Positions 1 to 64,000 of a stretch of 64,000 bases of DNA are shown here, one piece after another (positions within the stretch are counted from its first letter, which is position 1; every line of letters begins with the position of its first letter). The notes beneath the pieces were generated by a model. The model saw only the letters and a program-made list of their open reading frames with translations, ran no database searches and had not been told where the DNA came from. A program made the position numbers and the translations under genes. The stretch spans positions 864,001 through 928,000 of the forward strand of contig OY970320.1 in the NCBI GenBank assembly GCA_963716745.1, given 5' to 3'. The DNA comes from an uncultured Gemmatimonadaceae bacterium (GTDB lineage: Bacteria > Gemmatimonadota > Gemmatimonadetes > Gemmatimonadales > Gemmatimonadaceae).

Positions 1-84
1 TGAAAAAACATGGCATACGACTGCGCGCAATGTCGTATGCCATGTGTTGTCATGCATCACCGGTTCCCGGTAACCGGTTCCCGG
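1..84. repeat. Family A palindrome, copy 1 (truncated by window edge)
   Basis: CATGGCATACGAC...GTCGTATGCCATG...ACCGGTTCCCGGTAACCGGTTCCCGG. Confidence 0.9.
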
Positions 85-96
85 CTGTTGCGGTGA

Positions 97-2759: not shown

Positions 2760-2860
2760 GGGACCTCTATTGGGGCGGCGAAGGGCGGCGCTCGGCAGTA
2801 GGCGCTCGGACTACAAACTACGAGACGACGAACGAGTCCGCGAGGAGGGAACGGAAACGA

Positions 2861-2976
2861 CCGGGAACCGATTGCCGGGAACCGGTGATGCATGAAAACA
2901 CATGGCATACGACATCGCGCGATGTCGTATGCCATGTGTTGTTATGCCATACCGGTTCCCGGTAATCGGTTCCCGG
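2861..2976. repeat. Family A palindrome, copy 2
   Basis: Full inverted repeat CCGGGAACCGATTGCCGGGAACCGGT...ACCGGTTCCCGGTAATCGGTTCCCGG. Confidence 0.95.
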
Positions 2977-2985
2977 CGGTTGCAG

Positions 2986-21259: not shown

Positions 21260-23953
21260 TTGGTGCTCTCGGCGTGCGTCGACCGCGCGCCGAGGCCACC
21301 CACGCCGCTCGACCTCGCCTTCCAAGTCGCGGATAGCCTGCGCCTCGAGGGGCGCTTTGCGCAGGCAGCGCCGATCCTGTTGGCCCTGCGTGATTCGCTC
21401 GCGGTGGCCGGCGACACCGCCGGTGTTTGGCGGGCTGACCTTTGGCTGGCCGACGCGCTCATCGGCGTCCGTCAAATGGACAGCGCGCGAACCGAACTCG
21501 CGGCGGCGTTTGCCCTGGCCGGCGCTGATGCCGATCGGGAGGCTTGGATAAGGAACGAGCGCAGCCTGTTGCTCGACCGCCTCGGCAAGTTCGATTCGGC
21601 CACCGCCGAAGCGATGCATGCACGCGAGCTGGCACGCATCGCACATGACTCGATGCTCGAGGCGAAGACGTTCAACGAGACCGCCCGCATCCAGTCGCTC
21701 ACCGGTCACTATCGCGAGGCGATCGCCGACAACCTGCAGGCGCTCGCCATCGATTCTGCCCTCGCGGGACGCGCCGTGCGCGACATGGCGATCGAATGGA
21801 ATGAGTTGGGGATCGGCTATCGTCACCTCGGCCGTTTCACCGATGCCGAGCAAATGCTCGTTCAGGCGCTCGTTCTCGAGCGGGCCCGGCGGAACCCGGA
21901 AGGCATCGCGCGAGCGTCGTTCAATCTCGCGAACGTCTATGTCGCGACCGGCGATGACCGCCGCGCCCTCCCGCTCATGCTCGAGTCGCTTCACACCGTG
22001 GAACCCACCGGCAATGCGCGCGGTGAGATCTTCGTGCGCACGGATCTCGCTGAGCTCTATACGCGCGCGGCTCGTTACTCCGAGGCACGCAAGCACATCG
22101 TGAAAGCGCTCGCGCTGAACAACGGTGCGTTCGCGTATTCGCGCGTGGAACTCCTGGGCGCACTCGCGCGGTTGGAGCTCGCCGAGCGGCGGCCATCGCT
22201 CGCGACGATCCTGCTGGACTCTGCGGTGCGCACCGCCGATTCGTTGGGATACGGCCGGCAGCGCGCGTCAGGACGCGCATCGCTCGCGCGCGCGGCGATA
22301 GCGCTCGGCGAACCCGGTCGCGCGGCGCGATCAGGATCCTCCGCCGTGAGGATCGCCGATTCGCTGGACGATCCCGAAGCGCAAGTCGAGGCCCGAGAGG
22401 CGTACGGTGCGGCGCTCGAGGCGGCGGGGCGCTCGAGCGCGTTGGACGAGTATCGGCGGCACGATCGCGCTCCTCGAGTCGTGGCGCGGACGCGTCGCGC
22501 TCGGCGATCTGCGTATGGGAGTCGCGCAGCCGCGGCTCGGCGCGTACGAAGGGGCGATCCGACTGCTGGTTCGTGAGGGCCGTGCAGGTGATGCCTTCGA
22601 CGTCGCCGAACAGGCGCGAGCGAGGCTGCTGCTGGATCTGATGCGCGATCGTGGCGACGGCCCTTCGCGTTCGCGAGATGAAGCGATCCGGCGCCGGTTG
22701 CGTGAGCGAGGCGACGTACGAGGCGATGCGGAGCCGGCACAGCGCGCCGCGATCGACCGCGAGATCGCCGCGCTCGTCGATTCGATCGGCGGCGGCGCGC
22801 GCGACCCTGACGTGCGCGGCGCGATCGCACGCGACCCGGCGCCGCTCCCGATCCATGACATCCAGGCACGGCTCCTCTCGAAGGACCGCGCAATGCTCGT
22901 GGTGTTCTGGGGCGATCAGGATGTGTACGGCTGGTGGATCACCGCCACATCCGTGCGTGCCGCGCGTCTTGGCCCCGCGGATTCGTTGGCGATGATGGTC
23001 GAGTTCCTGCGCACCGCGGTGGAGGACACAACGGGGCGCGTGCCGTGGAAACCGGCCGCGCGGCGGATGTTCGCCACGATCATCGCGCCGCTCGCCCCCG
23101 ATGCTTCCGCCGAAGTGCTCGTGATCACTGACGGCCCGCTCGCGAACGTTCCGGCCGAAGTATTCCTGCCGCCGGGAGACAGCCTCCCGTGGGGCGCGAC
23201 GCGGCGCATCGGGTACGGTCCCTCGGCGTCGGTGCTCGCGACGTTCATGTCCTCCTCCCGAACGCCCCGCTGGGATCGCGCGATCCTCGCGGTAGGGAAT
23301 CCCGCGCCATCGCCGGGTCGCGCGAGCGCGGGACCGGCCGGCGAACGCGACGGCGCGCGCGCGCCTCTCCCGTACGCGGCGGTCGAGGCACGTGAAATCG
23401 CGACACTGTTCGCCGCCGGCACGAGGGATGTGCTCACCGGCCGAGACGCCACGCTCACGCGATGGCGCGCGCTGGATCCTTCGCGCTATCGCTACCTGCA
23501 TTTCGCAGCGCACACGTCGCTCGTCGGCCGCCGGACGGGCGCGTCCGCTGTGATGCTCGCCGACAGCGCCCTCGATCTCCCGGCGATCCGCGCCCTCGAT
23601 CTGACCGCCGAACTGGTGACGTTGTCAGCGTGCGAGACCGCGTTGGGCGATCGCGTGCGCGGCGAGGGAGTCCTCGGACTTTCGCACGCGTTCCTGTCCG
23701 CCGGTGCGCGCGGCACCGTGGTCACGCTCTGGCCGATCCGCGACCGCTCGGCCGCGGATTTCATGACCGCGTTCTATCGCGCATTGAGCGCCGGCGCGGC
23801 GCCATCGGCGGCACTGCTCACCGTACGGCGCGCGTGGATCGCCGCGGCGGTGCGCGCGCGCAACCGGCGAGATGGGCGCCTTATGTGCTCATCGGAGGAG
23901 CTGCGGCGCACGTGAAACTGAACGGCCGGGAGCCGATTGCCGGGAGCCGATGA
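21260..23953 (+). CDS. TPR-CHAT (caspase-like) protease, putative lipoprotein (frameshifts ~22455 and ~23850)
   Basis: TPR-like helices (NELGIGYRHLG, NLANVY); CHAT motifs YLHFAAH and LVTLSACET, FLSAGARGTVVTLWPI; WAPYVLIG in the shifted frame; N-terminal LSAC lipobox. Confidence 0.85.
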
Positions 23954-24052
23954 GGCATGACAACACATTCCTATAACGACTTCGCGCAGTGTCGTGATGG
24001 AATTTGTTGTCATGCCACATCGGCTCCCGGCAATCGGCTCCCGGCCGTTCAG
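23918..24052. repeat. Family A palindrome, divergent copy (GGGAGCCGA variant)
   Basis: CTGAACGGCCGGGAGCCGATTGCCGGGAGCCGAT...ATCGGCTCCCGGCAATCGGCTCCCGGCCGTTCAG. Confidence 0.9.
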
Positions 24053-40383: not shown

Positions 40384-41967
40384 GTGATCCATCGCAGCCC
40401 CTACCCCGACGTCGTGATCCCCGACGTCCCTTTCCATCAATTCGTGCTCGCGCGCGCGAAGGCACTCGGCGACAAGCCCGCGCTCATCGACGGACCAACC
40501 GGCCGCGTGCTGTCGTATGCCTCGCTCGCCGCCGGCGTCGAGCGCGTCGCCGCCGGACTCGCGGCGCGCGGATTCGCGAAAGGCGATGTATTTGCGATCT
40601 TCGCGCCGAATTGTCCCGACTTCGCGCTCGCCTACCTCGGCGCCGCCGCTGCGGGCGGTGTGATCACCACGATCAGCCCGCTCGCGCCACTCGATGATCT
40701 CGCCAAGCAGCTCGCGAATTCGCGCGCACGGTATCTCGTTACGATCCCGCAGTTCCTCGATCGCGCGGCCCCCGCAGCCGATCGCGCCGGCGTCGAGGAG
40801 ATCTTCGTCTTCGAGACCGCCGATAGTGCGACGCCATTCGCATCGCTCGCTGAATTCGACGGCCGCGCCCCCGCGATGATCTTCGATCCCGCCAACGACC
40901 TCGTCGCACTCCCCTACTCCAGCGGCACCACCGGCCTGTGCAAGGGCGTGATGCTCACGCACCGGAACCTGGTCGCGAACGTGCTGCAATCCGCCGCAAT
41001 GCTGCGGATCGGCGAACACGATCGCGCTATCGCGCTCATGCCCTTCTTTCATATCTACGGCATGGTCGTCGTGATGGGCCTCCATCTTTCACAGGGCGCG
41101 ACGCTGGTCACGATGCCGAAGTTCGAGATGGAGACGTTCCTCGCGCACCTGCAAACGCATCGCATCACACACGTGTGCGTCGCGCCGCCGGTGATCGTCG
41201 CGCTCGCCAAGCATCCCGCACTCGGCACGATTGACCTTTCGAATCTCAGGATCCTCTTCTCCGGCGCCGCGCCAATGGACGCCGAGCTGCAGCGCGCGTG
41301 CGCCGCGCGTCTCGGATGTGACGTGATGCAAGGGTACGGCATGACCGAGGCGAGCCCCGTCACGCACGCGACCAGCGCGCTCCCGGGTAAGAATCGTCCC
41401 GGCACCGTGGGCGAAGTCGCGCCGAACACGGAGTGCCGCATCATCGACGTCGCGACGGGCACAGACGCCGCGCCCGGCGCACCCGGCGAACTCTGGGTGC
41501 GCGGCCCTCAAGTCATGAAGGGATACCTCGGCGACGCCGCCGCCACCGCGTTAACGCTCGACGCCGACGGATGGCTGCACACGGGCGACATCGGCTGCGC
41601 CAATGCGGATGGGTATTTCACCATCGTCGACCGACTCAAGGAGTTGATCAAGTACAAAGGATACCAGGTGCCGCCCGCGGAACTCGAAGCGCTGCTGCTC
41701 ACGCATCCGTGCGTGGCGGACGCGGCGGTGATCGGTGTGCCGGATGCAGATGCCGGTGAATCGCCGAAGGCATTCGTAGTGCTCAAGGGCAACGTGAGCG
41801 CGGAGTCGCTCATGGAGTTCGTTGCCGAGCGCGTCGCGCCGTACAAGCGGATTCGGAGCGTTGAGTTCATCGACGCGATTCCCAAGTCGCCGTCGGGGAA
41901 GATACTGCGGCGCATACTGAAGGACCGAACGACTAACAGCCGGGAACCGATTACCGGGAACCGGTGA
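40384..41967 (+). CDS. 4-coumarate-CoA-ligase-like AMP-dependent synthetase
   Basis: YSSGTTGLCKGV, QGYGMTE, GWLHTGD, DRLKELIKYKG, PKSPSGKILRR. Confidence 0.9.
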   Translation: MIHRSPYPDVVIPDVPFHQFVLARAKALGDKPALIDGPTGRVLSYASLAAGVERVAAGLAARGFAKGDVFAIFAPNCPDFALAYLGAAAAGGVITTISPLAPLDDLAKQLANSRARYLVTIPQFLDRAAPAADRAGVEEIFVFETADSATPFASLAEFDGRAPAMIFDPANDLVALPYSSGTTGLCKGVMLTHRNLVANVLQSAAMLRIGEHDRAIALMPFFHIYGMVVVMGLHLSQGATLVTMPKFEMETFLAHLQTHRITHVCVAPPVIVALAKHPALGTIDLSNLRILFSGAAPMDAELQRACAARLGCDVMQGYGMTEASPVTHATSALPGKNRPGTVGEVAPNTECRIIDVATGTDAAPGAPGELWVRGPQVMKGYLGDAAATALTLDADGWLHTGDIGCANADGYFTIVDRLKELIKYKGYQVPPAELEALLLTHPCVADAAVIGVPDADAGESPKAFVVLKGNVSAESLMEFVAERVAPYKRIRSVEFIDAIPKSPSGKILRRILKDRTTNSREPITGNR

Positions 41968-42057
41968 TGCATGACAACGCATGGTGTTACGGCAGTGCGC
42001 GACGTCGTAATACCATGTTTGGTCATGCCACACCGGTTCCCGGCAATCGGTTCCCGG
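41940..42057. repeat. Family A palindrome
   Basis: Full copy overlapping the ligase stop codon. Confidence 0.95.
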
Positions 42058-42098
42058 CAGTTCGAACGAACCCACTCACTCGCGTGTATTGTTAGCAC

Positions 42099-43050: not shown

Positions 43051-43737
43051 GCGAATGGTGGACGTACCGCCCTCACGATCTCCTCATGTACTCGGCGCGG
43101 GCCTATTACGGTCTGTTCGCGCTGGAGAATTCGCGAGTGTGGCCGTTGCAGCTCATGGCCATCGCGATCGGCGCCACCGCGATCGAGTGGCTCTGGCGAG
43201 GACGCGCGCGCGATCAGCGGATCGCGATCGTGCTCATCGCGGTAGCATGGTGCAGCGTGGCGTGGCTGTACTTCGTGAACGAGTACAGCACCATCCACAC
43301 GATGGCCCGCGGCTTCGCGATCGCGTTCGTCGCGCAGGCGGTGCTGCTTGCGATCGCTGCAGGGAGACTCGCACCATCCGATGCGCGCTCGCGCGCCGGA
43401 GTCGCGCTCGCCCTGATCGCACTCGCAGGTATCCCACTCCTAGCGCCACTCACTGGACGCCCGTGGTCACAAGCCGAGCTATTCGCGCTCGCGCCTGACC
43501 CGACCGTCGGCGTCACGATCGGCGCACTGCTCCTGCTGCCCGGGGAGCAGATGGTGGCTCTGGCCCATCCCTCTCCTGTGGACACTCTACAACGGAGCAA
43601 CGTTGTGGCTGCTCCACGCCTACGCCGGCCTGGCGCTGCCGGCGATCGCGGTCGTCGCGTTGTTCACACGCATCATCGGCAGGAATTCAGTCGATGCGGC
43701 CTCCGTCCCATCCGTTCCATCCGTCCGATCCGTGTAG
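43047..43737 (+). CDS. DUF6064-like membrane protein (frameshift ~43545)
   Basis: MSEWWTYRPHDLLMYS, GRPWSQAELFALAPDPT; the shifted frame continues WPIPLLW to TAG 43735-43737. Confidence 0.65.
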
Positions 43738-43893
43738 AATATGAACCGTGATCTCCGCGCGCCCGCAACGATCGATGCGGTTTCGAGGGATCACGGTTCA
43801 TGTTTTGAACGGATCAGACGGATGGAACGGATGGGACGGAGACCGCGTGAAGGGCATCGGCGCGCAAGCAATACTGCATTTTTTGGGAACGGC
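43696..43893. repeat. Family D inverted pair (GATCACGGTTCAT...ACGGATGGA 9-nt periodic)
   Basis: 43696-43753 is the reverse complement of 43789-43846; continues to TTTTTTGGGAAC. Confidence 0.85.
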
Positions 43894-43916
43894 TAGCGCA
43901 TGTTAGGTGGAATTAA

Positions 43917-43954
43917 TTGTCATGCCACACCGGTTCCCGGCAACCGGTTCCCGG
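43917..43954. repeat. Family A right arm only
   Basis: TTGTCATGCCACACCGGTTCCCGGCAACCGGTTCCCGG. Confidence 0.85.
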
Positions 43955-44146
43955 TAGTAAGAACTACGCACTCGTGACATTTCCGAGTCGTGCATCTCTC
44001 CGGTCCCGACAATATCCTTCGAACCCTATCTCACCTCCGGCGCGCCAAGCGCGCCGACGGTCCGGGAGAGCACCGGCACATCCGCCGGCCTCTGGCGTTG
44101 CCCAATCGGCCACCCGGATCGCGCACGAAGAACAATGGGAGGCACC

Positions 44147-44755
44147 ATGCACAACGGAAGCGCAGTGCTCGTGATCGACATGGCGAACGACTTCGTGTTC
44201 CCTTCCGGAGTCATCGCCGGCGCCGGCGGCGCGGAGTACCAGGAGCGCGCCCAGGCGATCATCCCGCGATTGAGCCGATTGCTCGACGCGGCCCGTCACA
44301 ACGGCACGCTCGTCGTGTACGCGACCGACGCGCATACGCCGGACGACGGCGAGCTCAGGAAGTGGCCACCGCATTCCATGAAGGGAACGAAGCTCGCCGA
44401 GATCGTCGACGACCTGCGTCCGGGCCCGGATGATCTCGTGCTGGAGAAGAACACCTACAGCGCGTTCGCTTCCACCGACCTCGAGCGGCTGCTGCGCGAC
44501 CGCGGCATCACGCGCCTCTACATCACGGGGCTGCACACCGATTGCTGCGCTCGACACGCGAGCGCCGATGCGTTCCAGAAGGGATTCGATCTCGTGTGGG
44601 TGACGGACGCGTTGCAAGCGTTCACTGAAGAGGCCCACCGATCGGGGCTGGAGTACATGAAGTCATGGTACGCGACGGATCCGGATAAACAATTCCGGAC
44701 GGCAAGTGAAATCGAGACCGAATGGAGTCGGGTGCCGGAGATGGCAGAAGCGTAA
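44147..44755 (+). CDS. Cysteine hydrolase (isochorismatase/nicotinamidase family)
   Basis: VLVIDMANDF, WPPH, EKNTYSAF, GLHTDCC. Confidence 0.9.
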   Translation: MHNGSAVLVIDMANDFVFPSGVIAGAGGAEYQERAQAIIPRLSRLLDAARHNGTLVVYATDAHTPDDGELRKWPPHSMKGTKLAEIVDDLRPGPDDLVLEKNTYSAFASTDLERLLRDRGITRLYITGLHTDCCARHASADAFQKGFDLVWVTDALQAFTEEAHRSGLEYMKSWYATDPDKQFRTASEIETEWSRVPEMAEA

Positions 44756-44764
44756 CTGCAACGG

Positions 44765-44882
44765 CCGGGAACCGATTGCCGGGAACCGGTGTGGCATGAC
44801 AACGCATTCCTTAACGACATAGCGCGAAGTCGTGATGTCATGCGTTGTCATGCATCACCGGTTCCCGGCAATCGGTTCCCGG
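44765..44882. repeat. Family A palindrome
   Basis: Full copy. Confidence 0.95.
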
Positions 44883-44929
44883 TAGTCGCCGTGTTGCGTG
44901 AACCCGCCGTGGATGGCAAGCTCACGGCC

Positions 44930-45700: not shown

Positions 45701-45723
45701 TCGCTCGCGAAGAGGCGGGGAAA

Positions 45724-46042
45724 GATCACGGTTCATGTTTGAACGGATCTGACGGATGGAACGGATGGGACGGAGACCGCGTGAAGAGCGTTAGCGCGCG
45801 AACAAATGCAAGCGTTGGGAACAGCTCGCGCGAATCGAGATCGAGCAAGGGAGCGGCGGCGCCCCCGGCGCAGCCGCGGCAGCGAAAAGCGAGAGACTCG
45901 CGCGTCGTCTGCGCGAGGCTCGAAGCGGTTTGAGCGAAAGCGGCCTAGCCGGGGGCGTCGCCGCGACCGGCGGCGCGACGACCCCACGCGCGGTTTGAGC
46001 GAAAGCGGCCTAGCCGGGGCGACGCCGCGACCGGCGGCGCGA
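45724..46042 (+). repeat. Family D+E composite element with a tandem-duplicated 3' part
   Basis: Closely matches 49280-49525; CGGTTTGAGCGAAAGCGGCCTAGCCGGGG occurs twice. Confidence 0.88.
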
Positions 46043-47876: not shown

Positions 47877-47977
47877 TCGTGATCCTCCGGGTTCGAGAGA
47901 GGACTGTTCCGAATGATACACCTATCGGATCGGACTGGCATCAAGGTGTGCGCTGATCGATCCCGTGAGACCGGAGG

Positions 47978-48062
47978 GATCACGGTTCATGATCTGAACG
48001 GATCTGCGCATGGAGACGGATCGAGCCGCGGAATGCTCGTGCGCAAGGAACTTCTTGGGAAC
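47978..48062 (+). repeat. Degenerate family D copy fused to a family A half
   Basis: GATCACGGTTCATGATCTGAACGGATCTG...TTGGGAAC. Confidence 0.7.
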
Positions 48063-48072
48063 TACTCTCGCC

Positions 48073-48128
48073 GTGTCGTGATGTAATGCGTTGTTATGCC
48101 TCACCGGTTCCCGGCAACCGGTTCCCGG
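48073..48128. repeat. Family A right arm only
   Basis: GTCGTGATGTAATGCGTTGTTATGCCTCACCGGTTCCCGGCAACCGGTTCCCGG. Confidence 0.85.
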
Positions 48129-48184
48129 TAGTCGCATGGCGAGCGGCACTGGACGAATTCGCCAGTCGCATTTAGAGTAAGAGC

Positions 48185-49131: not shown

Positions 49132-49525
49132 AGGTTCAAGTTTCGACCGGATCAACCGGATGATACGGATCATCCGGATACTTCATCGCGCGTGGAAGGC
49201 TCGTGTGCGCGACTACCTCTGATTTTTTTGGGAACGGCCGAAGCGCGACGCGCCGATCGATTCCAGCGAGGCCAGTACAGATCACGGTTCATGTTTTGAA
49301 CGGATCTGACGGATGGAACGGATGGGACGGAGACCGCGTGAAGAGCGTAAGCGCGCGAAGAAGTAAGACTTGGGAACAGCCCGCGCGAAACGAGATCGAG
49401 CGAGGGAGCGGCGCGGCCCCGGCGCAGCCGCGGCAGCGAAAAGCGAGAGACTCGCGGCGCAGTTCAGCCGCGAGGCTCGAAGCGGTTTGAGCGAAAGCGG
49501 CCTAGCCGGGGCCGCGCCGCGACCG
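49132..49525 (+). repeat. Degenerate D copy (49132-49238) followed by a full D+E element (49280-49525)
   Basis: GATCACGGTTCATGTTTTGAACGGATCTGACGGATGGAACGGATGGGACGGAGACCGCGTGAAG...CCTAGCCGGGGCCGCGCCGC. Confidence 0.85.
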
Positions 49526-51353: not shown

Positions 51354-51410
51354 CGAGTGCTCCATTCGAAACGGGAACCAGCGCCCCCGACAACTTACGC
51401 CCTCCCAGCC

Positions 51411-51473
51411 GCGCGCAATGTCGTGACACCATTCGTCGTCATGCCTCACCGGTTCCCGGTAACCGGTTCCCGG
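51411..51473. repeat. Family A right arm only
   Basis: GCGCGCAATGTCGTGAC...CATGCCTCACCGGTTCCCGGTAACCGGTTCCCGG. Confidence 0.85.
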
Positions 51474-51558
51474 CAGTCAGCCGTTCGGACGCTTTCCATC
51501 CCCTATCAAATAGGGTATAAATAGGTGCTGTCGCCACAACCTCAACCACGAGGCTACC

Positions 51559-52023
51559 ATGAGACGTTCCATTCTCGCCGCGACACTGCTGTTCGCCGGC
51601 GCCTCCCTCTCGGCTCAAGCCGCCCCCGCCGCCGCGCCCGCACTCAAGTGGGGACCCGCGCCGCCAGTCTTCCCCGCCGGCGCGCAGATGGCCGTCGTAT
51701 CGGGCGACCCGTCGAAAGCGGGACCGTTCGTGATCCAGCTCAAACTGCCTGATGGGTACACGATCGCGCCGCACTTCCACCCGACGATGGAAAGCGTGCA
51801 GGTCATCTCGGGCATGTTCATGGTCGGGATGGGAGATACGGTGAAGACCGCCGACATGAAGATGTTCATGGTCGGCCAGAGCGGGAGCATCCCGGCGACC
51901 ATGCACCATTACGCACGCGCCCAAGGCCCCACGATCGTGCAGGTGACGTCGACGGGCCCGTTCGCGCTCACGTACGTGAATCCGGCGGACGATCCGTCGA
52001 AGATGGCGAAGCCGGGACAGTAA
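51559..52023 (+). CDS. Secreted cupin-domain protein
   Basis: GDPSKAGPF, PHFHP..E..VISG, PATMHHYA. Confidence 0.85.
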   Translation: MRRSILAATLLFAGASLSAQAAPAAAPALKWGPAPPVFPAGAQMAVVSGDPSKAGPFVIQLKLPDGYTIAPHFHPTMESVQVISGMFMVGMGDTVKTADMKMFMVGQSGSIPATMHHYARAQGPTIVQVTSTGPFALTYVNPADDPSKMAKPGQ

Positions 52024-52033
52024 CTGCTAACTA

Positions 52034-52151
52034 CCGGGAACCGATTGCCGGGAACCGGTATGGCATGAACACGCATGGCATCACGACTTCGCCCAATGTC
52101 GTGATGCCATGCGTTGTTATGCCTCACCGGTTCCCGGCAATCGGTTCCCGG
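52034..52151. repeat. Family A palindrome
   Basis: Full copy. Confidence 0.95.
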
Positions 52152-52186
52152 CTTGCTCACGCCATGTGACAATCCCCGGAGGCCCA

Positions 52187-52774
52187 ATGAATCGCACGCG
52201 CGCCATTGCGGCGGCACTCGTCCTCGGCGCTCCAACAATGCTGTTCGCGCAACAGCCGATGGCGCCCGTGCCCAGCGGCCCAGGCATGGTGATCACGGGA
52301 ACCATGCACACCTCCGCCATGTTATACGGCGGGTGGCTGAAAACAGCCTTCGATTCGATCCCGGCGAGCAAGTTCGGGTTCCGTCCGACGCCGCAACAGC
52401 AGACCATCGGATATATCGCCCAGCATCTCGAGGCCGCGAACTATCTGCTCTGCTCGCGCTTCGGCGGCCTGACGCCGCCGATGACCGCCAGAGATTCACT
52501 CGCGGACACGATCAAGGCTCAGTGGCCGAAGGACACCCTGGTAGCTCGCCTCAAAGCGTCGCTCGAGTTCTGCCATCGCGCGTTCGCGACGGTCAACGAC
52601 GCGAATCTCACCGACTCGATCCCCGCGGGCCCGCCGGGCTCGGGGCGCAAGAGCGTGAGAGTCCGCGCGGTGCAGATCTTCGTGCTCGACCTCGCCGATC
52701 ACTACAGTCAGCTCGCGAATTACATGCGGCTCAATGGAATGGTGCCGCCGTCGTCGTTTCCGCCGCTCAAGTGA
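52187..52774 (+). CDS. Secreted DinB-family protein
   Basis: FGFRPTP, IAQHL, DHYSQLANYMRLNGMVPP. Confidence 0.85.
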   Translation: MNRTRAIAAALVLGAPTMLFAQQPMAPVPSGPGMVITGTMHTSAMLYGGWLKTAFDSIPASKFGFRPTPQQQTIGYIAQHLEAANYLLCSRFGGLTPPMTARDSLADTIKAQWPKDTLVARLKASLEFCHRAFATVNDANLTDSIPAGPPGSGRKSVRVRAVQIFVLDLADHYSQLANYMRLNGMVPPSSFPPLK

Positions 52775-52796
52775 AGAGGCGGGGCTGCTGGTACTG

Positions 52797-52914
52797 CCGG
52801 GAACCGATTACCGGGAACCGGTGATGGCATGAAACGCATGGCATCACGACTTCGCCCGATGTCGTGATGCCATGTGTTTTCATGCCACACCGGTTCCCGG
52901 AAATCGGTTCCCGG
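52797..52914. repeat. Family A palindrome
   Basis: Full copy. Confidence 0.95.
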
Positions 52915-52926
52915 TAGTTGAGTAGT

Positions 52927-53951: not shown

Positions 53952-54034
53952 GGGGCGCTCAGGAAAAAGAGAGATTCCACGATATGATTCGATCGAGAAT
54001 AAGGCAAGCGTGCTCTCACTAGAAGATCGAACTA

Positions 54035-54152
54035 CCGGGAACCGATTGCCGGGAACCGGTGATGCATGACAACGCATGGCATCACGACATCGTGCGAAGT
54101 CGTGATGCCATGCGTTGTCATTCCATACCGGTTCCCGGAAACCGGTTCCCGG
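54035..54152. repeat. Family A palindrome
   Basis: Full copy. Confidence 0.95.
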
Positions 54153-54214
54153 CTGTTTGTCCTTAGCGTCGCCTCGCTATACTAATACTCACGGACTTCG
54201 ATCAGGAGTATTCC

Positions 54215-54694: not shown

Positions 54695-55239
54695 CCCGAC
54701 GCGCATCGGTGGTGCAGCTCACGGTGCCGGTATCGAAGCGCGATCACCTCATCGGGCCGGACACGGCGCCCGTGACACTGCTCGAGTACGGCGACTACGA
54801 ATGCCCCTACTGCGGCCGTGCGTTCCCGATCGTCCAGGAAGTGCGGAAGCGCCTGGGCGACAAACTACGATTCGCGTTCCGGAATTTCCCGCTCACGCAG
54901 GTGCATCCGCACGCCGAGCACGCGGCCGAGGTGGCCGAAGCGGCGGACGCGCAGGGGAAATTCTGGGCGATGCACGACTGGATCTACACGCACCAGGAGA
55001 CGCTCGAAGATGAAGAGCTGCTGGACGGCGCGCGCGAAGTAGGACTCGACGCCGATCGCGTGGCACGAGAGCTGGCGGACGGCACGCATCGATCACGCGT
55101 GCACGACGATTTCGCGAGCGGCATAAGGAGCGGCGTGAACGGCACGCCCACGTTCTACATCAACGGAGCACGGCACGACGCGGATTATAATTTCGCGACG
55201 CTTATGGGGGCGATAGAGAAGGCTGGGGGAAAGAAATAA
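54691..55239 (+). CDS. DsbA-family thioredoxin-fold protein
   Basis: EYGDYECPYC, RNFPL, GVNGTPTFYING; ATGA overlap with the redoxin gene. Confidence 0.9.
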   Translation: MTRRASVVQLTVPVSKRDHLIGPDTAPVTLLEYGDYECPYCGRAFPIVQEVRKRLGDKLRFAFRNFPLTQVHPHAEHAAEVAEAADAQGKFWAMHDWIYTHQETLEDEELLDGAREVGLDADRVARELADGTHRSRVHDDFASGIRSGVNGTPTFYINGARHDADYNFATLMGAIEKAGGKK

Positions 55240-55242
55240 CTA

Positions 55243-55359
55243 CCGGGAACCGATTACCGGGAACCGGTATGGCATGAACACGCATGGCATCACGACTTCG
55301 CCGATGTCGTGATGCCATGCGTTGTCATGCATCACCGGTTCCCGGAAACCGGTTCCCGG
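55243..55359. repeat. Family A palindrome
   Basis: Full copy with AACTA...TAGTT flanks. Confidence 0.95.
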
Positions 55360-55363
55360 TAGT

Positions 55364-57292
55364 TCAGGTCCTTTCGATCCTGAAATACGCCGCGTATCTC
55401 TCCCCGAACACATTCACCAGCGGCACGAACGTCATCGGCGTCCCCTGCCCCACCGTGGTGAACTCGAGCGGCTTTCCCGCCACCGGCGAAAGCCAACTCG
55501 CCGGGTCATCGCTCGGCGCTTTGATCGGCGCGGCGTGGATCTCGGGAATGTCCGGATATTCCGGTATCGTGCGCGGCGCCGTGGGTTTCGCGAGAACATT
55601 CTCGGGCGTGAGGTCCTTCTTCCCCATGAGACCCACGAGCACGAGCGGTCCGTACATGATCGCCTGCATCCGGTGATCGTCGGGCATGGGATGCGCGTGC
55701 AGGTGCATGGGCAGCGTCACCTCGAGCGTGTCGCCCGATTTCCATTCGCGATCGACAACGAGCCAACTCGACGGGCCCGCGAACGCGGTGAGCGGTTTGC
55801 CGTTCACTCTCGCGCTTCCGCCGCGCGTCCAGTACGGAACTCGCACGCGCAACGCGAGTCTCACCGGTTTGTCGGCGATCACGGTGAGCGTCGTCGTGTC
55901 CCCGACCGGGAATTTCGTCTCCTGCCGGATCTTCACGCCCTTCGCCGCCCACGTCACTTCGCTCGGCACGAAAAGATTCACCCACACGCCCGAGTCGTCG
56001 TGGAAGTACACGCTGTCGCCGAGCTTCGAGAAATTCTCGACGCCCGTGCCCTGGCAACACCAGAATCCCTGCTCCGGCGTGCCGAATAGTTTCCAGTATC
56101 CGTCGGCGAGCGGCGTGTAGTAGATCTTCTCGCCATTCGCGGGATCCATGGTCGGCATGATCCCGTTCCAGTACGCGCGCTCGTAATAATCCGCATAGCG
56201 CACGTCGGGGCGCCACGTGAACAGGTGCCGCGTGAGCTTCAGCATGTTGTACGAGACGCACGTCTCCTGCGTGTAGCCGCTGAGCGCGCCCGCGAGCTGG
56301 CCGGGCTCGAATTGCCACTCCTCGCCGTTGCTCGTTCCGCCGGTGGCGTACGCGCGGCGCTCGGTCACATCCTCCCAGAAGAACTCACTCATCCCGCGCG
56401 GACGGTCGTCGCCCGTCATCTCGTGCCATCGCGCGGCGCCGAGCACTTTGGGGACGTTCGTGTTCGCGTGCACCGATTTGAGTTCATCGCGCCCAACGGC
56501 CAGCGGCGCTAGGAACGTCTCCTGATCGAAGCGGCTCGCGATCTTCGCATACTTCGCGTCGCCCGTCGCCTGCGCGAGCTCGCGCAGCGCATCATTCATG
56601 CCGCCGTATTCCGTGTTGAGCAGCGCGTGCCACTGCGTGTCCGGAATGGGTTCGGCGTACGCGATCACCCAATCGCCCATCCCTCTCGCCATCGCGAGCG
56701 CCTGCGCGTTGCCGCCCAGCGTGTACGTGTCGACGAGTCCGGCCAGGATCTTGTGATACGTATAGAACGGCGCCCAAACGCGCCGGCGCTCGGCGAGGCG
56801 CTCGAAATATTCTTTCGGGAACGCGCTCAGATACCCGCCGCCGAGCGCGGCTTGGCAGGGCGCGAGCTGCGCGACGATCAGATCGCCGCGCGCTTTGATC
56901 GTGGCGTCGCCCGTCTGCGCCGCCATGAGCGCACACGCGCTCATGTAGTGACCCACGAAGTGACCGCGCAGTTCGTTGTTGGGCGCTTCCCACCCGCCAT
57001 ACGGTTTCGCATCGCTCGCGATGCCGGCATTCACGCGGAACACGTGGAGCAGCCGGTCGGGATCGAGCGCGAGCATGTACTTGCGATTGATCTCCAGCGC
57101 GGTGAGCTGCGGCCCCGGAAGCAATCGCACGTCGTGCAGATCGAACGGCAGCGCCGCGAATGTGATCGGCGCCGCGGCGAACTCGCGGGCAAGACGGGAG
57201 AGGCGCGCGAGATGCGACTCGGCGCTCTGGAGCACCGGAAGCGCCGCACCCGCGATCGCGGCCTTTTCGAAGAATTCTCGACGATTGATCAT
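55364..57292 (-). CDS. GH127/GH146 beta-L-arabinofuranosidase-like protein, Tat-exported
   Basis: NRREFF, YGGWE, LRGHFVGHY, WAPFYTYHK, EYGGMN, HANT, ETCVSYNMLKL, WCCQGTG. Confidence 0.9.
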   Translation of the reverse strand: MINRREFFEKAAIAGAALPVLQSAESHLARLSRLAREFAAAPITFAALPFDLHDVRLLPGPQLTALEINRKYMLALDPDRLLHVFRVNAGIASDAKPYGGWEAPNNELRGHFVGHYMSACALMAAQTGDATIKARGDLIVAQLAPCQAALGGGYLSAFPKEYFERLAERRRVWAPFYTYHKILAGLVDTYTLGGNAQALAMARGMGDWVIAYAEPIPDTQWHALLNTEYGGMNDALRELAQATGDAKYAKIASRFDQETFLAPLAVGRDELKSVHANTNVPKVLGAARWHEMTGDDRPRGMSEFFWEDVTERRAYATGGTSNGEEWQFEPGQLAGALSGYTQETCVSYNMLKLTRHLFTWRPDVRYADYYERAYWNGIMPTMDPANGEKIYYTPLADGYWKLFGTPEQGFWCCQGTGVENFSKLGDSVYFHDDSGVWVNLFVPSEVTWAAKGVKIRQETKFPVGDTTTLTVIADKPVRLALRVRVPYWTRGGSARVNGKPLTAFAGPSSWLVVDREWKSGDTLEVTLPMHLHAHPMPDDHRMQAIMYGPLVLVGLMGKKDLTPENVLAKPTAPRTIPEYPDIPEIHAAPIKAPSDDPASWLSPVAGKPLEFTTVGQGTPMTFVPLVNVFGERYAAYFRIERT

Positions 57293-57341
57293 GACATTCG
57301 ATTTGCGTGAGCGGATGAGTATTTGCAAGGGGGGAGAACGG

Positions 57342-57458
57342 CCGGGAACCGATTACCGGGAACCGGTGATGCATGACAAAGCATGGCATCACGACATCGC
57401 GCGAGTCGTGATGCCATGCGTAGTCATGCCACACCGGTTCCCGGTAACCGGTTCCCGG
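57342..57458. repeat. Family A palindrome
   Basis: Full copy. Confidence 0.95.
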
Positions 57459-57538
57459 TCGTTCTGCTCTCGCGCTTCCTGGCCCTCTCAACTAAATATT
57501 CACGTTGTCAGTGGTCTCTCAACTGGGGGCCTAATGTC

Positions 57539-58960
57539 ATGATGATCTCTCGTCGAACTGTGATCCTGGGCGGCCTGGTCCTGTTGGCCGAACGCTACAT
57601 CTCGTGGCCTCTTCGAGGTAACGCGCCCGACGAAGAGTCGACCCTGAACGATGCGGTCGATGCCTATCTGTACGGCTATCCTCTGCTCGTCATGGACACG
57701 ATGCGCCGGCAGCTCACCAACGTTCCTTCCGCTGAGCCAGCTCGTGCGCCCATGGGCCAACTGCGCCGGCTGAGGACCTACCCGGCGGTGAACGACCATT
57801 CCGTTCCGGCGCCCAATGCCGACACTCTTTACACCGACGCGTGGCTCGACCTCCGCAAGGAGCCGATGGTCCTGTCCGTGCCGGACATGGGCGATCGCTA
57901 CTTCATGCTGCCCATGCTGAGCGGCTGGACGAATGTCTTTCATGTGCCCGGCACCAGGACCACGGGCGAAAAATCGCAGACGTACGTGATCTCGGGTCCC
58001 GATTGGTCCGGCGCGCTTCCCGCAGGTGCCATCGAGTACAAATCGCCGACTTCGATCGTTTGGATGCTCGGCCGCATCTATTGCACCGCCACGCCCGAGG
58101 ACTACGCCGCCGTCCACGCGCTGCAAGACAAGATGTCGCTGGTGCCGTTAAGCCAATTCGGCAAAGCGTACACGCCTCCGGTGTCTCCCGTGGATCCCGC
58201 GATCGATATGCGCACGTTGCCGCGCGACCAGGTGAACGCGCTCGGCGTCGACGAGTATTTCAAATATCTGGCGGAGTTGATGAAGACCAATCCGCCGCTG
58301 CCGCAGGACGGGCCGATGATCGCACGCATGGCGAGCATCGGGCTGACGCCCGGGCGCGACTTCGATCCGGCCCCGCTGCGTGCGCTCGGTGCGAGTGCCA
58401 TCAGCGACATCCCGAAGATGGCCATGCAGCGCATGCTGGCGCGTTTCGGACAACTGCAGCATGCGAACGTCAACGGGTGGATCTTCTTCGGCCCGAGCAT
58501 CGCGAGCTGGGGCACCGACTACGAACTGCGGGCCCTGTGCAACTTCTTGGGACCGGGGTGGAATCTCCCCGCCGACGCCGCGTATCCCGCCACCGAGAGG
58601 GGCACCGACGGCAAAGAGTATGATGGCAACGGCAAGTACGTGCTCCGCTTCAAGCGGGGCGAGATGCCGCCGGTGAACGCGTTCTGGTCACTGACCATGT
58701 ACGACAGCGATCGCTTCTTTGTGCCCAACGCGCTGAACCGTTACACCATCAGCCAGCGCGATGAACTCGTCGCCAACGCTGATGGCTCAACGGACATTTA
58801 TCTGCAGGCCGATTCGCCCGGCAAGGACCGAGAGGCCAACTGGCTTCCGGCGCCGAAAGGGAAATTCAGCGTCATGCTGCGATTGTACTGGCCGAAGGAT
58901 AAACCGGTTTCGATCCTGAACGGCACGTGGACGCCGCCGAAGGTGGAAGCGGCGGGCTGA
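57539..58960 (+). CDS. DUF1254/DUF1214 domain protein
   Basis: AYLYGYPL, PNADTLY, EPMVLSVPD, PPVNAFWSLTMY, NWLPAP, LRLYWP. Confidence 0.9.
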   Translation: MMISRRTVILGGLVLLAERYISWPLRGNAPDEESTLNDAVDAYLYGYPLLVMDTMRRQLTNVPSAEPARAPMGQLRRLRTYPAVNDHSVPAPNADTLYTDAWLDLRKEPMVLSVPDMGDRYFMLPMLSGWTNVFHVPGTRTTGEKSQTYVISGPDWSGALPAGAIEYKSPTSIVWMLGRIYCTATPEDYAAVHALQDKMSLVPLSQFGKAYTPPVSPVDPAIDMRTLPRDQVNALGVDEYFKYLAELMKTNPPLPQDGPMIARMASIGLTPGRDFDPAPLRALGASAISDIPKMAMQRMLARFGQLQHANVNGWIFFGPSIASWGTDYELRALCNFLGPGWNLPADAAYPATERGTDGKEYDGNGKYVLRFKRGEMPPVNAFWSLTMYDSDRFFVPNALNRYTISQRDELVANADGSTDIYLQADSPGKDREANWLPAPKGKFSVMLRLYWPKDKPVSILNGTWTPPKVEAAG

Positions 58961-58975
58961 CTGCGAGGCACACGG

Positions 58976-59092
58976 CCGGGAACCGGTTGCCGGGAACCGG
59001 TGATGCATGACAAAGCATTGCATCACGACATCGCGCGAGTTGTGATGCCATGCGTAGTCATGCCACACCGGTTCCCGGTAACCGGTTCCCGG
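58976..59092. repeat. Family A palindrome
   Basis: Full copy, nearly identical to 57342-57458. Confidence 0.95.
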
Positions 59093-59102
59093 TAGTTCGC
59101 CT

Positions 59103-61764: not shown

Positions 61765-61811
61765 ATGCCCAAAGTATGAAGGGCGCGGCGGTCGCGCTAT
61801 ACGACAAACGG

Positions 61812-61929
61812 CCGGGAACCGGTTACCGGGAACCGGTGTGGCATGAACACACATGACATCAGGACTTCGCGCACTGTCGTGATGCCATGCGTTGTCATGC
61901 CACACCGGTTCCCGGTAATCGGTTCCCGG
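61812..61929. repeat. Family A palindrome
   Basis: Full copy. Confidence 0.95.
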
Positions 61930-62007
61930 CCCTTGCCGTTACCACAGCGCGCGGCCGTTCACGCGCGTATAGTGTAAGAGCTTCAGCGACAAACCCCAGG
62001 AGAATCC

Positions 62008-62898
62008 ATGATGCCGATCCCCCGCCTCGCGCTGATCGCCGCCCTCGCTGCCGCGCTCGCCGCGTGCGGCAGCACCTCCTCCACGGGGCCAGGCAGCAAC
62101 TTCACCGTCATCGGCGACAGCGCAGTCACCATCGGGCCGCCCGGGGGGAGTCTGACCTACGCCGCCGGCATCAACGATTCGGGAACAGTGGTCGGCGTCG
62201 TGGTGGATGATGTCACGAGCATCCAGTATGGCTGGCTGCTCAAGGGTGGCTTCCTGCAATATCTCACGGCCACCATCCCGAGCTCCGCCAACACCACGCC
62301 GCAGACGATCAACGATAGCGGCAACGTGGCAGGGTTCTTCACGGTCGGCACCGTCGCTCACGCCTTCCTCTTCAATGGCACCGCGTACTCCCAGTTCGAT
62401 TATCCAGCCGCGGCGTCGACGGAGGCCGACGGGATGAACGCGTCCGGCACCATCGTGGGCGCCTACTTCGTGAGCGGGTCCGCGAACGGGCACGCCTTCA
62501 AGTTGAGTGGGGGCACCTTCACCAACATCGAGCCGCCGTCCGTCACCTCGTCGGTGGCACTGGGGATCAATGCGCTGGGCGACGTCGTCGGCGAGTTCAC
62601 CGACAACGCCGGCCAGCATGGGTATGTCTGGCTGCACGGCGCGACTGCCCCCACCGAGATCACGCAGAGCGGCGTCGACCAGATCACGCCCTACTCGATA
62701 AACGATACCGGCACGATCGTCGGAAGCTGCACGGTGTCGGGAGTATCGTACGGGTTCCTCCTCGCGGGCACCACATTCAAGATCATCCAGGCGCCGAGCG
62801 CCTCGTCCACGCAGGCGTACGGCATCAACAATGCCGGGGTGGTGGTGGGAGAGTACACGAACTCGGTGAATTACGCGTTCGAGCTGACGACGCAGTAA
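62008..62898 (+). CDS. Lipoprotein with HAF-type extracellular repeats
   Basis: Lipobox LAAC; repeats A.GINDSG.VVG....HAFL. Confidence 0.82.
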   Translation: MMPIPRLALIAALAAALAACGSTSSTGPGSNFTVIGDSAVTIGPPGGSLTYAAGINDSGTVVGVVVDDVTSIQYGWLLKGGFLQYLTATIPSSANTTPQTINDSGNVAGFFTVGTVAHAFLFNGTAYSQFDYPAAASTEADGMNASGTIVGAYFVSGSANGHAFKLSGGTFTNIEPPSVTSSVALGINALGDVVGEFTDNAGQHGYVWLHGATAPTEITQSGVDQITPYSINDTGTIVGSCTVSGVSYGFLLAGTTFKIIQAPSASSTQAYGINNAGVVVGEYTNSVNYAFELTTQ

Positions 62899-62907
62899 CT
62901 ACAACGG

Positions 62908-63025
62908 CCGGGAACCGGTTACCGGGAACCGGTGTGGCATGAACACGCATGACATCACGACATCGCGCAATGTCGTAATGGAATGTGTTGTCATGCATCA
63001 CCGGTTCCCGGTAACCGGTTCCCGG
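62908..63025. repeat. Family A palindrome
   Basis: Full copy. Confidence 0.95.
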
Positions 63026-64000
63026 TAGTTTCCTCGGCCCGCGCCACCAACTCTCCCAGCCTCGCAAGCCCCGCCCCCACATTCTCCTTGAACCGCTGGG
63101 AGGCCGCCTGCACCGCCGGATCCTCGGCCCTCGCGCGTATCCCACGGAATGGATTGAGTCTCGCCGTCTCGAGCCACGCTTGGATGTCGGGTTCCTTCGA
63201 CATCGCGCGATCGGCCCTCGCCTGGATGAGCGTCGAACGCGCCCAGTCGAGCCGCGAATGAAATAGCGGATTCGGCGGGCAGAGCCGGTTCTTCTCGATC
63301 GTATCGTCGCGGTGCGCCTCCACGAATCCGACCAGCGCCCCGTTGAACGTCGGGAGTCCCGCCCGCACCGGTTGCAGCGTGATCCGGTCATTCGCGAAGA
63401 TCGGCACCGCGGGCGGCCGCCGGAGTCCGTCGGCGGCGCAATGCACGTGGAGATGCGTTGGCTTCGTTGGCACTTCGCCGCGCTCGAGCACAATGCGGTT
63501 CCGCTCGATGCGCGTCACGTGGCCGAGCCGCACGACGTTCGTGATGCCGCGCAGCAGCTCGAGTTCCCAGTCGGCGATCGTCGCCGACTTGTACATCGTG
63601 GCCGGCACGCTCTTGTCCACCCGGCGGAACTGATCGCGCGCCCTCGAGGCGCACGAACAGATCCTCCTCACTCTCGGCGTGCGCGGCCGCTTCCATTTGC
63701 GACGCGACGCCATCGAGCAGCGTGCCGACGAGTTCTCCAGCTTGTGAGAAGCGGCGGTTACGGATCCAGGAGTCGCGCGGCTTGATCCACTGGATGCGAT
63801 CCGCGCTCACGCCCTGCTCGAGCAGCCAGACGCACGCGTCCATCGCCGTCTTGCCGCCGCCGATGATGACGAATCGCTCCGGTTGACTCGCGAGGTTGGC
63901 GATCGCGTTCACGGGCACGCACGCGACTCCGTCGGCGACGTCGAACGGAGGCGGAGAATTCGCGGGGATCGAGGGGGAGAGATACGTCGCGTTCACGATT
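62991..64000 (-). CDS. FAD/NAD(P)-binding oxidoreductase, 5' truncated by the window edge, frameshift ~63640
   Basis: FVIIGGGKTAMDACVWLL, WIKPRDSW, HVHCAADG, EKNRLCPP. Confidence 0.75.

Follow-up and report, generated by a model that had tools for sequence, protein, structure and literature searches.

The focal hairpin and its neighbours

The window, that is, the whole stretch of DNA analysed here (64,000 nucleotides), spans G000:C1:864001-928000 in the genome of an uncultured Gemmatimonadaceae bacterium, and the feature coordinates below are window positions. An earlier note on this DNA had drawn attention to a family of attC-like palindromes (family A) and to one copy in particular, which it placed correctly: position 44753 reads TAACTGCAACGG, and the TAA found there is the stop codon of the gene at 44147-44755. 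On either strand the focal copy forms a single long hairpin (z -12 and -14). Only one of its ends is AAC, the right one being GTC, and the close genome G002 has an identical copy at the same site. An Rfam scan of the 64-kb window gave no match. The features of the window are as follows, with the strand where one applies.

1..89, family-A copy truncated by the left window edge
2856..2981, family-A copy, arm types GAT/RTG
23921..24049, family-A copy, GAG/RTG; GGGAGCC variant in both arms
41935..42062, family-A copy, GAT/RTG
43908..43959, solo right arm of family A; adjoins a different hairpin family
44147..44755, + strand, isochorismatase-family gene; G000 and G002 have it together with the focal copy, G004 lacks both
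44753..44887, focal family-A copy; core CCGGG...CCCGG at 44765-44882; starts inside the TAA stop of the upstream gene; ends AAC and GTC
44792..44793, + strand, left side of the conserved internal loop in the focal copy (arm positions 27-28, type RTG)
44854..44855, + strand, right side of the conserved internal loop in the focal copy (type GAT)
48068..48133, solo right arm; in G004 another hairpin family lies directly inside
51395..51478, solo right arm and part of the centre; upstream of the gene at 49539-51353
52021..52156, family-A copy, RTG/GAG; begins inside a TAA stop
52187..52774, + strand, DinB_2 gene between two copies; gene and one copy absent in G004
52792..52919, family-A copy
54030..54157, family-A copy; both arms rewritten in the G004 ortholog
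55237..55364, family-A copy that overlaps two stop codons, those of a convergent gene pair; both arms rewritten in the G004 ortholog
57337..57463, family-A copy; 96.6% identity to the copy at 58971..59097 (joint top of 595 pairs)
57560..58960, + strand, DUF1254/DUF1214 gene flanked by two near-identical copies; G002 and G004 lack the gene and have one copy at this place
58971..59097, family-A copy
61807..61934, symmetric copy, RTG/RTG; orthologs GAT/GAG in G002, rewritten in G004
62896..63030, family-A copy that starts within a TAA stop codon; G002 has different arm types here

A second hairpin family (GATCACGGTTCATG...) clusters at 43700-43850, 45720-45800, 47970-48010 and 49276-49356, often beside solo family-A arms. 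By eye, -35/-10-like spacing can be seen on the minus strand at 51372-51483, after the solo arm and upstream of the gene at 49539-51353. Many genes of the window are frameshifted.

Number, ends and position of family-A copies

A profile search of G000 gives 51 merged HMM matches to family A, 20 of which fall in one 100-kb bin around the window. An arm-based search of the same genome gives 44 two-armed copies, 43 of them gene-less, and 6 solo arms (one doubtful). Family A is also present in the same genus, and relatives built of pure (GGGAACC)n occur in G003, G086 and G140; the family-A pattern is found at four loci in metagenome contigs and at none in viral contigs. Like REP and REPIN sequences, family A is an extragenic, multi-copy, lineage-specific imperfect palindrome. 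It is one of 13 long-palindrome families in the whole of G000, which together take in 257 of 292 hairpins.

The AAC/GTT ends described in the earlier note are enriched: AAC stands at -5..-3, outside the core, in 62 of 88 arms against a background trinucleotide frequency of 0.9%, and at both ends in 23 of 44 copies, although the focal copy itself departs from the pattern with its right end GTC. An AAC end after a stop is common to 10 of the 13 repeat families in G000 (175 of 397 stops near a repeat against 137 of 2347 elsewhere). In 32 of 44 copies an end has a called stop at -12..+20 nt. Stops at this distance accompany 45 of the 58 arms that face a gene end, compared with 2 of the 30 that face a gene start. 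Convergent genes enclose 21 of 44 copies, the corresponding figure for gaps being 157 of 1082. All these stop and convergence counts rest on our own gene calls in a frameshift-rich assembly. The adjacency to stops, said often to take the form TAAC, holds in that form at 44753, 52021, 55237 and 62896. On the minus strand the sites at 2986, 55364, 52927 and 59103 are ORF ends as claimed, but their stops read TAA, TGA, TGA and TAG, and therefore not every one is a TAAC.

A conserved internal loop

In most full copies the two arms had been said to form a fixed mismatch or staggered bulge. Arm positions 27-28 are mismatched in 40 of 44 copies, where 5000 shufflings of the arms give 31.6 (P=0.001; the copies are not independent), whereas the polymorphic arm positions 13, 20, 39 and 40 are less mismatched than in shuffled arms. 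The mismatch is thus in excess, but it takes the form of a 1x1 or 2x2 internal loop with no bulged base. Because of this excess and the enrichment of AAC ends, the picture that would speak against the earlier note, a bulge no more conserved than other mismatches together with unenriched AAC/GTT ends, is not what the copies present, with the same reservation that they are non-independent. Three arm types are found instead of two (GAT/RTG in 16 copies, GAG/RTG in 12 and GAG/GAT in 6), and the copy at 61812 is indeed a symmetric exception (RTG/RTG). The orientation that the mismatch gives the palindrome tracks neither transcription, replichore nor the polarity of G-T wobbles.

Between genomes, arm types differ at the same orthologous site in 8 of 18 cases in G002 and 8 of 11 in G004. 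In G002, 18 of 19 copies retain the 27-28 mismatch; the figure is 8 of 14 for G004 and 5 of 7 for G005, where at least one of the matches is another family. A protein that reads the folded strand, the general inference of the earlier note, is plausible in view of a loop that stays open at 27-28 while other positions are homogenised, and of the mutational halo in the flanks described below.

A gene-bearing copy and its heptamer arms

One family-A copy, at G000:C1:2133803-2134361, has its arms 499 nt apart, and they enclose a gene for a four-helix-bundle protein of 122 aa, which lies on the minus strand in the region of C1:2133826-2134233. The enclosed gene matches 23S_rRNA_IVP (Pfam, E 8e-35) and TIGR02436 (E 1e-33), and the only PDB match of this family-A IVP is the five-chain structure 2GSC. 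In G005 the same cassette occupies the same site, with a dN of 0.09 and a dS of 1.37 for the IVP gene; IVP genes are under purifying selection. IVP matches also come from 27 plasmid records.

Inverted arms flank all 7 IVP matches of G000, each of another repeat type, and IVP genes lie in long copies of several of the 13 palindrome families. The same arrangement is seen in 36 of 37 IVP rows of the genus, in 22 of 29 order-level IVP loci against 0 of 55 controls, and in 50 of 77 IVP loci from many phyla against 0 of 142 controls (1 of 30 order-level rows and 3 of 80 many-phyla rows having been dropped for short flanks before counting). Among the 50, 47 have arms with period 7, and the median arm is 30 nt. 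Family-A arms are likewise periodic at 7 and 14 nt, with a self-match of 0.52 at lag 7 and 0.61 at lag 14 against 0.13-0.20 at lags 4-5 and 9-12, and they consist of an array of diverged 7-nt units akin to (GGGAACC)n. IVP arms do not in general carry AAC ends (8 of 44 and 16 of 100 against a background of about 5%).

It is therefore very likely that family A is the gene-less, REPIN- or MITE-like, empty form of a palindromic IVP cassette. Across loci, A-like arms are weakly tied to IVP lineage (support 57/66), and G002 (63% complete) and G004 (76%), with about 40-50 family-A matches each, have A arms at none of the IVP loci inspected (10 of 12 and 9 of 9, respectively).

The nearest published relative is the GGGAATC heptamer repeat of Xanthomonas and Nostoc, which, in the parts of the paper covered here, likewise consists of 7-nt units, about four per arm, with the G-rich strand inward, forms inverted pairs near stop codons and has no transposase link (PMC4692102). 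The same parts interpret the repeats as G-quadruplex-forming and contain no IVP-gene link, and family A differs from the repeats described there in its diverged units, long paired centre and AAC ends. Row 15 of supplement 2 of that paper places a 4-unit GGGAATC repeat where XCC0516 begins, which is the gene behind the IVP structure 2GSC; the part of the supplement covered lists neither a partner arm nor a downstream partner for it (PMC4692102). A literature search over titles and the starts of abstracts of papers outside subscription journals returned no link of IVP genes to dispersed repeat arms.

Rewriting and replacement of copies between close genomes

About 0.85, 0.82 and 0.42 Mb of G002, G004 and G005 were compared with G000, to which their flanks are about 93, 90 and 82% identical. 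Over the first 26 arm positions of 11 orthologous sites in G004, 57 changes are matched in both arms against 25 that affect one side, most of them towards one shared G004-type sequence. Within G000, family-A copies less than 5 kb apart have an identity of 0.90 against 0.83 for those more than 200 kb apart. For all families pooled, another hairpin stands at the same site in 6 of 77, 11 of 38 and 9 of 29 mapped sites in the comparisons with G002, G004 and G005, and most cases of "no hairpin" among the mapped sites are a degenerate or half repeat. Swaps that involve family A are found at C1:950038, 1077651, 2174229, 2694698 and 2849053, and a reverse swap at 2285973. The locus at C1:2133871 carries an IVP cassette in five genomes with four arm types, and the IVP genes of the five genomes do not form one clade there (AU p=0.004); the whole cassette, arms and gene, was replaced at this locus. 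As the comparison of genomes shows, copies persist through in-place rewriting, in which both arms change together, neighbours converge and whole copies are replaced by other families.

Genes with one adjoining copy also come and go. The gene at 57560-58960 between its two copies is, by parsimony, a gain in G000; its best matches in G001-G005 reach 66-73% over long stretches, and no close donor is among them. The gene at 52187-52774 with a copy, and the gene at 44147-44755 with the focal copy, are absent in G004, where the place of 43908..43959 holds a solo right arm followed directly by the right flank of the focal copy (this focal difference was found by eye and stands outside the counted indel events). 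Indels with the same family at both ends make up 3 of 27, 4 of 32 and 2 of 27 against a null of 1.8%. A general excess of indels near repeats was considered and rejected: the figure of 11 of 38 is not above the intergenic expectation, and the excess is confined to the class with the same family at both ends. Ordinary homologous recombination between copies explains the gene-plus-one-copy gains and losses. The cassette behaviour suggested earlier has some truth in these varying units, which such recombination explains.

Several irregular sites were seen in the course of these comparisons. Garbled two-family hybrids at G000:C1:1080901 and at the G002 ortholog of C1:2694697 are possibly a mixed-strain consensus in the long-read assemblies; these two sites suggest strain mixture in the assemblies, which may lie behind some hybrids. 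Between G000 and G005, at C1:2393757 and C1:2183329, the arm family differs and the centre is kept (a terminator-like hairpin at the first site), as if arms had been rewritten round a fixed centre. At L058:13003-13291, L225:801-1070 and L226:418-, other hairpin families are nested in a family-A centre, along with a hybrid that has one family-A and one foreign arm. The G005 ortholog of C1:2305808 and G005:C9:228763 are perfect palindromes that reach about 20 bp into the flanking gene, which points to copying by fold-back or to an artefact of assembly. At G000:C1:2783050-2783355 there are some 300 consecutive A and an AT-rich stretch, probably an assembly artefact. Four contig sets from DNA sequencing runs, with small shares, contained no informative joint.

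A mutational halo in the flanks

Family-A copies have a compositional halo. The strand read towards family A is C-poor over about 120 bp, and at fourfold sites G/(G+C) is 0.75 against 0.54 at gene ends facing a copy (n=41 against 1662). The mirror image is found at the starts of genes facing away from family A, with 0.39 against 0.49 (n=23). With all families pooled, synonymous divergence over the last 40 codons near repeats is about 1.5-fold higher in the three comparisons (0.19 against 0.12, 0.23 against 0.16 and 0.42 against 0.29), and the rate of C>x near repeats is 0.21 against 0.10, a doubling of the pace at which C disappears. When family A is taken by itself, the divergence halo comes from 4-13 genes per comparison and is flat in G002 (0.133 against 0.121).

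Comparison with attC sites, REP elements and other classes

The 7-bp cores of attC sites read RYYYAAC and GTTRRRY, and RYYYAAC occurs in 4 of 88 family-A ends. A positive control for attC features is provided by a genuine integron at G000:C1:2775534-2779813, where a frameshifted intI, the only one of the genome, is followed by five attC sites in the same direction, 1.85 Mb from the family-A window. IntI is intact in G005, and there is no intI at the syntenic place in G004, although G004 has family A. Of the 15 nt inside the core, 11-15 are paired straight through in family A against 1-6 in the five true attC sites, in which they do not pair in register because of the unpaired spacer and extrahelical base; the folds of family A have no unpaired central spacer and no L box extrahelical base. 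Family-A copies do not form a co-oriented array, the two orientations numbering 17 against 16 genome-wide and 7 against 4 in the window. Our own attC scanners are weak on true sites (the first found 0 of 5; the second, a strict one, found 1 of 5 with 13 other matches and no family-A copy), and the feature counts were therefore relied on. One of the five true attC sites weakly resembles the inner arm motif (top 1.5% of intergenic windows) and the other four do not at the same setting; shared ancestry of family A with the native attC sites was not accepted on motif scores so weak and inconsistent.

The features of attC sites and CALINs used for this comparison, the 7-bp consensus apart, were taken from PMC4889954. 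In this comparison family A has, in many copies, AAC...GTT near its ends, and it has stop-codon adjacency, a foldable strand and varying gene-plus-site units, but it is without the 7-bp R-box consensus, the unpaired spacer, the extrahelical base and a linked intI, and it occurs in both orientations. It is accordingly extremely unlikely that family-A copies are attC sites in a dispersed array of cassettes (CALIN) on which the IntI of this genome acts as recombinase. The enriched ends, the copies abutting stop codons, the varying units, the presence of an intI in the genome and the weak likeness of one true site are what can be said for it, yet the true array stands apart from family A, the syntenic place in G004 has no intI, 21 of 44 copies sit between convergent genes, and the AAC end is shared by 10 of 13 repeat families. 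The label "attC-like" thus fails as a statement of membership, given RYYYAAC in 4 of 88 ends, 11-15 of 15 nt paired inside the core, both orientations and an intI 1.85 Mb away with its own array.

An element of the REP or REPIN type moved by an HUH enzyme (RAYT or TnpA-REP) is also very unlikely, although family A shares the logic of REPIN-RAYT systems (PMC3116915, PMC3479197): its palindromes are extragenic, genus-specific and present in many copies, a mismatch is retained, and each family has one gene-bearing copy. A search for Y1_Tnp (HUH) found none in six genomes that are 63-90% complete. The 5' GTAG/GTGG at the hairpin foot, one of the REP features described in PMC3479197, is present in 0 of 88 arms (GTAG is on the 3' side in 22 of 88), and family A is one long stem, not two short REP hairpins. 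The alternative raised by the earlier note, recognition by a TnpA-REP enzyme, thus fails for the six genomes and 88 arms searched. The likeness extends to many gene-less palindromes with one cognate gene per family, a stem mismatch and nested insertions into copies; the difference is that the cognate gene of family A encodes a four-helix-bundle protein without a known catalytic site, besides the lack of an HUH enzyme in the genomes searched, the lack of a 5' GTAG and the single long stem (PMC3116915, PMC3479197). Family A works like a REPIN with a cognate gene (PMC3116915), yet on the features tested it belongs to neither attC nor REP-RAYT.

Other known systems share single traits with the IVP cassette. 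In the ORF-bearing intervening sequences of 23S rRNA (S23p), terminal inverted repeats with a mismatch enclose an IVP ORF in their loop, and mobility is put forward as one hypothesis (PMC4990558). The family-A cassette differs from that account in its heptamer arms and dozens of gene-less copies, and it follows the stop codon of a protein-coding gene, which places it outside the 23S intervening sequences (PMC4990558). The DGR accessory protein Avd has a homologous fold (PF05635 / cd16375), and DGR retrohoming likewise overwrites resident sequence in place (PMC10053308). The IVP cassette differs in that an RVT_1 search found none in four genomes, and no template/variable repeat pair was seen. 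A DGR-like retrohoming route, tried on the strength of the Avd homology, is therefore unsupported and was set aside. As for MITE traits, no clean empty site with target duplication was found among the family-A sites inspected, and no transposase flanked by family-A arms was seen.

A proposed mechanism and its alternatives

The explanation we lean towards, whose chances as a whole we put slightly above even, is that family A is an empty IVP cassette rewritten in place by cut-and-copy repair at folded hairpins. Of its parts, rewriting at the DNA level is probable, while a role of the IVP as the reader of the arms is possible but falls short of probable. The hairpin would form in single-stranded or cruciform DNA and would there be nicked or cut by a putative nuclease of the host or one recruited by the cassette. 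The cut hairpin would then be repaired by copying another copy, often a near one, and this repair may leave the flank halo of about 120 bp with its faster, C-losing change. Cutting and repair from another copy would account for the homogenisation, the local clustering and the halo. The open loop at 27-28 may be a shape mark, or it may prevent a perfect palindrome. The IVP ring would be the most likely reader of the heptamer arms, and the gene-plus-one-copy gains and losses would be by-products of homologous recombination between copies. The search for an enzyme acting on family A found no HUH in six genomes and no RT in four. Several observations weigh against this explanation: G002 and G004 keep family A while the IVP loci inspected there have no A arms, the arm-IVP lineage link across loci is weak (57/66), the mismatch is kept in only 8 of 14 G004 copies, the halo of family A alone comes from 4-13 genes per comparison and is flat in G002, and no clean empty site with target duplication is seen for family A. 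In addition, selection on RNA could also yield C-poor gene ends, and the swaps could be whole alleles imported by recombination between strains.

An element that acts as RNA is the foremost alternative, although unlikely. Under it, family A would be a 3'-UTR hairpin (a stabiliser, an RNase III site or a terminator aid) and the IVP would bind the RNA hairpin; selection would keep the copies, gene conversion would homogenise them, and the C-poor flanks would reflect selection on transcripts. Strong stop-codon adjacency and the excess between convergent genes fit such an element, as does the Coxiella 23S intervening sequence, whose S23p ORF sits in a stem of 28 bp that has a mismatch and a bulge and is cut by RNase III (PMC4990558), and so does the resemblance of the IVP to the DGR protein Avd (PMC10053308). 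However, G-U wobbles show no bias to the transcribed strand (17 against 26), the copies are not oriented to transcription, genes starting away from the copy show the halo in mirror image, and substitution near repeats is faster, not slower.

Template switching yields changes in both arms, and the matched changes counted in G004 would fit a neutral by-product as well. The hairpins would in that case be maintained and shuffled by template switching at quasi-palindromes and by homologous recombination, with the IVP a passenger that once rode in one copy. The indels with the same family at both ends (3 of 27, 4 of 32 and 2 of 27 against 1.8%) fit RecA-type recombination, and family A persists where no A-armed IVP is seen. 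This account is nevertheless improbable in the face of IVP genes that lie between heptamer arms in many phyla under purifying selection, of a loop at 27-28 that escapes the homogenisation seen at other positions, and of unrelated families that occupy the same sites.

Implications for the IVP family

The IVP/S23p family is spread over many phyla and has a solved ring structure and no known function, and heptamer palindromes are abundant and unexplained. As a tentative and rather doubtful generalisation of cut-and-copy rewriting, IVP cassettes might be a transposase-free and RT-free class of "overwriting" elements, in which a pentameric IVP ring would read 4-5 heptamer units of its cognate arm, recruit host cutting and repair, and replace its own or rival gene-end hairpins in place. 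Such a class, if true, would give the IVP family a function and the ORF-bearing 23S rRNA intervening sequences an origin, and would explain the heptamer repeats of Xanthomonas and cyanobacteria. If cut-and-copy rewriting of empty cassettes is true, repeats of this kind turn over gene content and alter codons locally across a major soil lineage, and they do so with no transposase dedicated to the task. Symmetric rewriting, the replacement of one family by another at fixed gene ends, a local halo of mutation and the shuffling of genes between copies take the behaviour described here beyond that of attC or REP-RAYT. A repeat family tied to its IVP gene also provides a concrete candidate ligand for binding assays. 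Elsewhere in G000, a GxxExxY gene lies between the arms of a 9-nt family.
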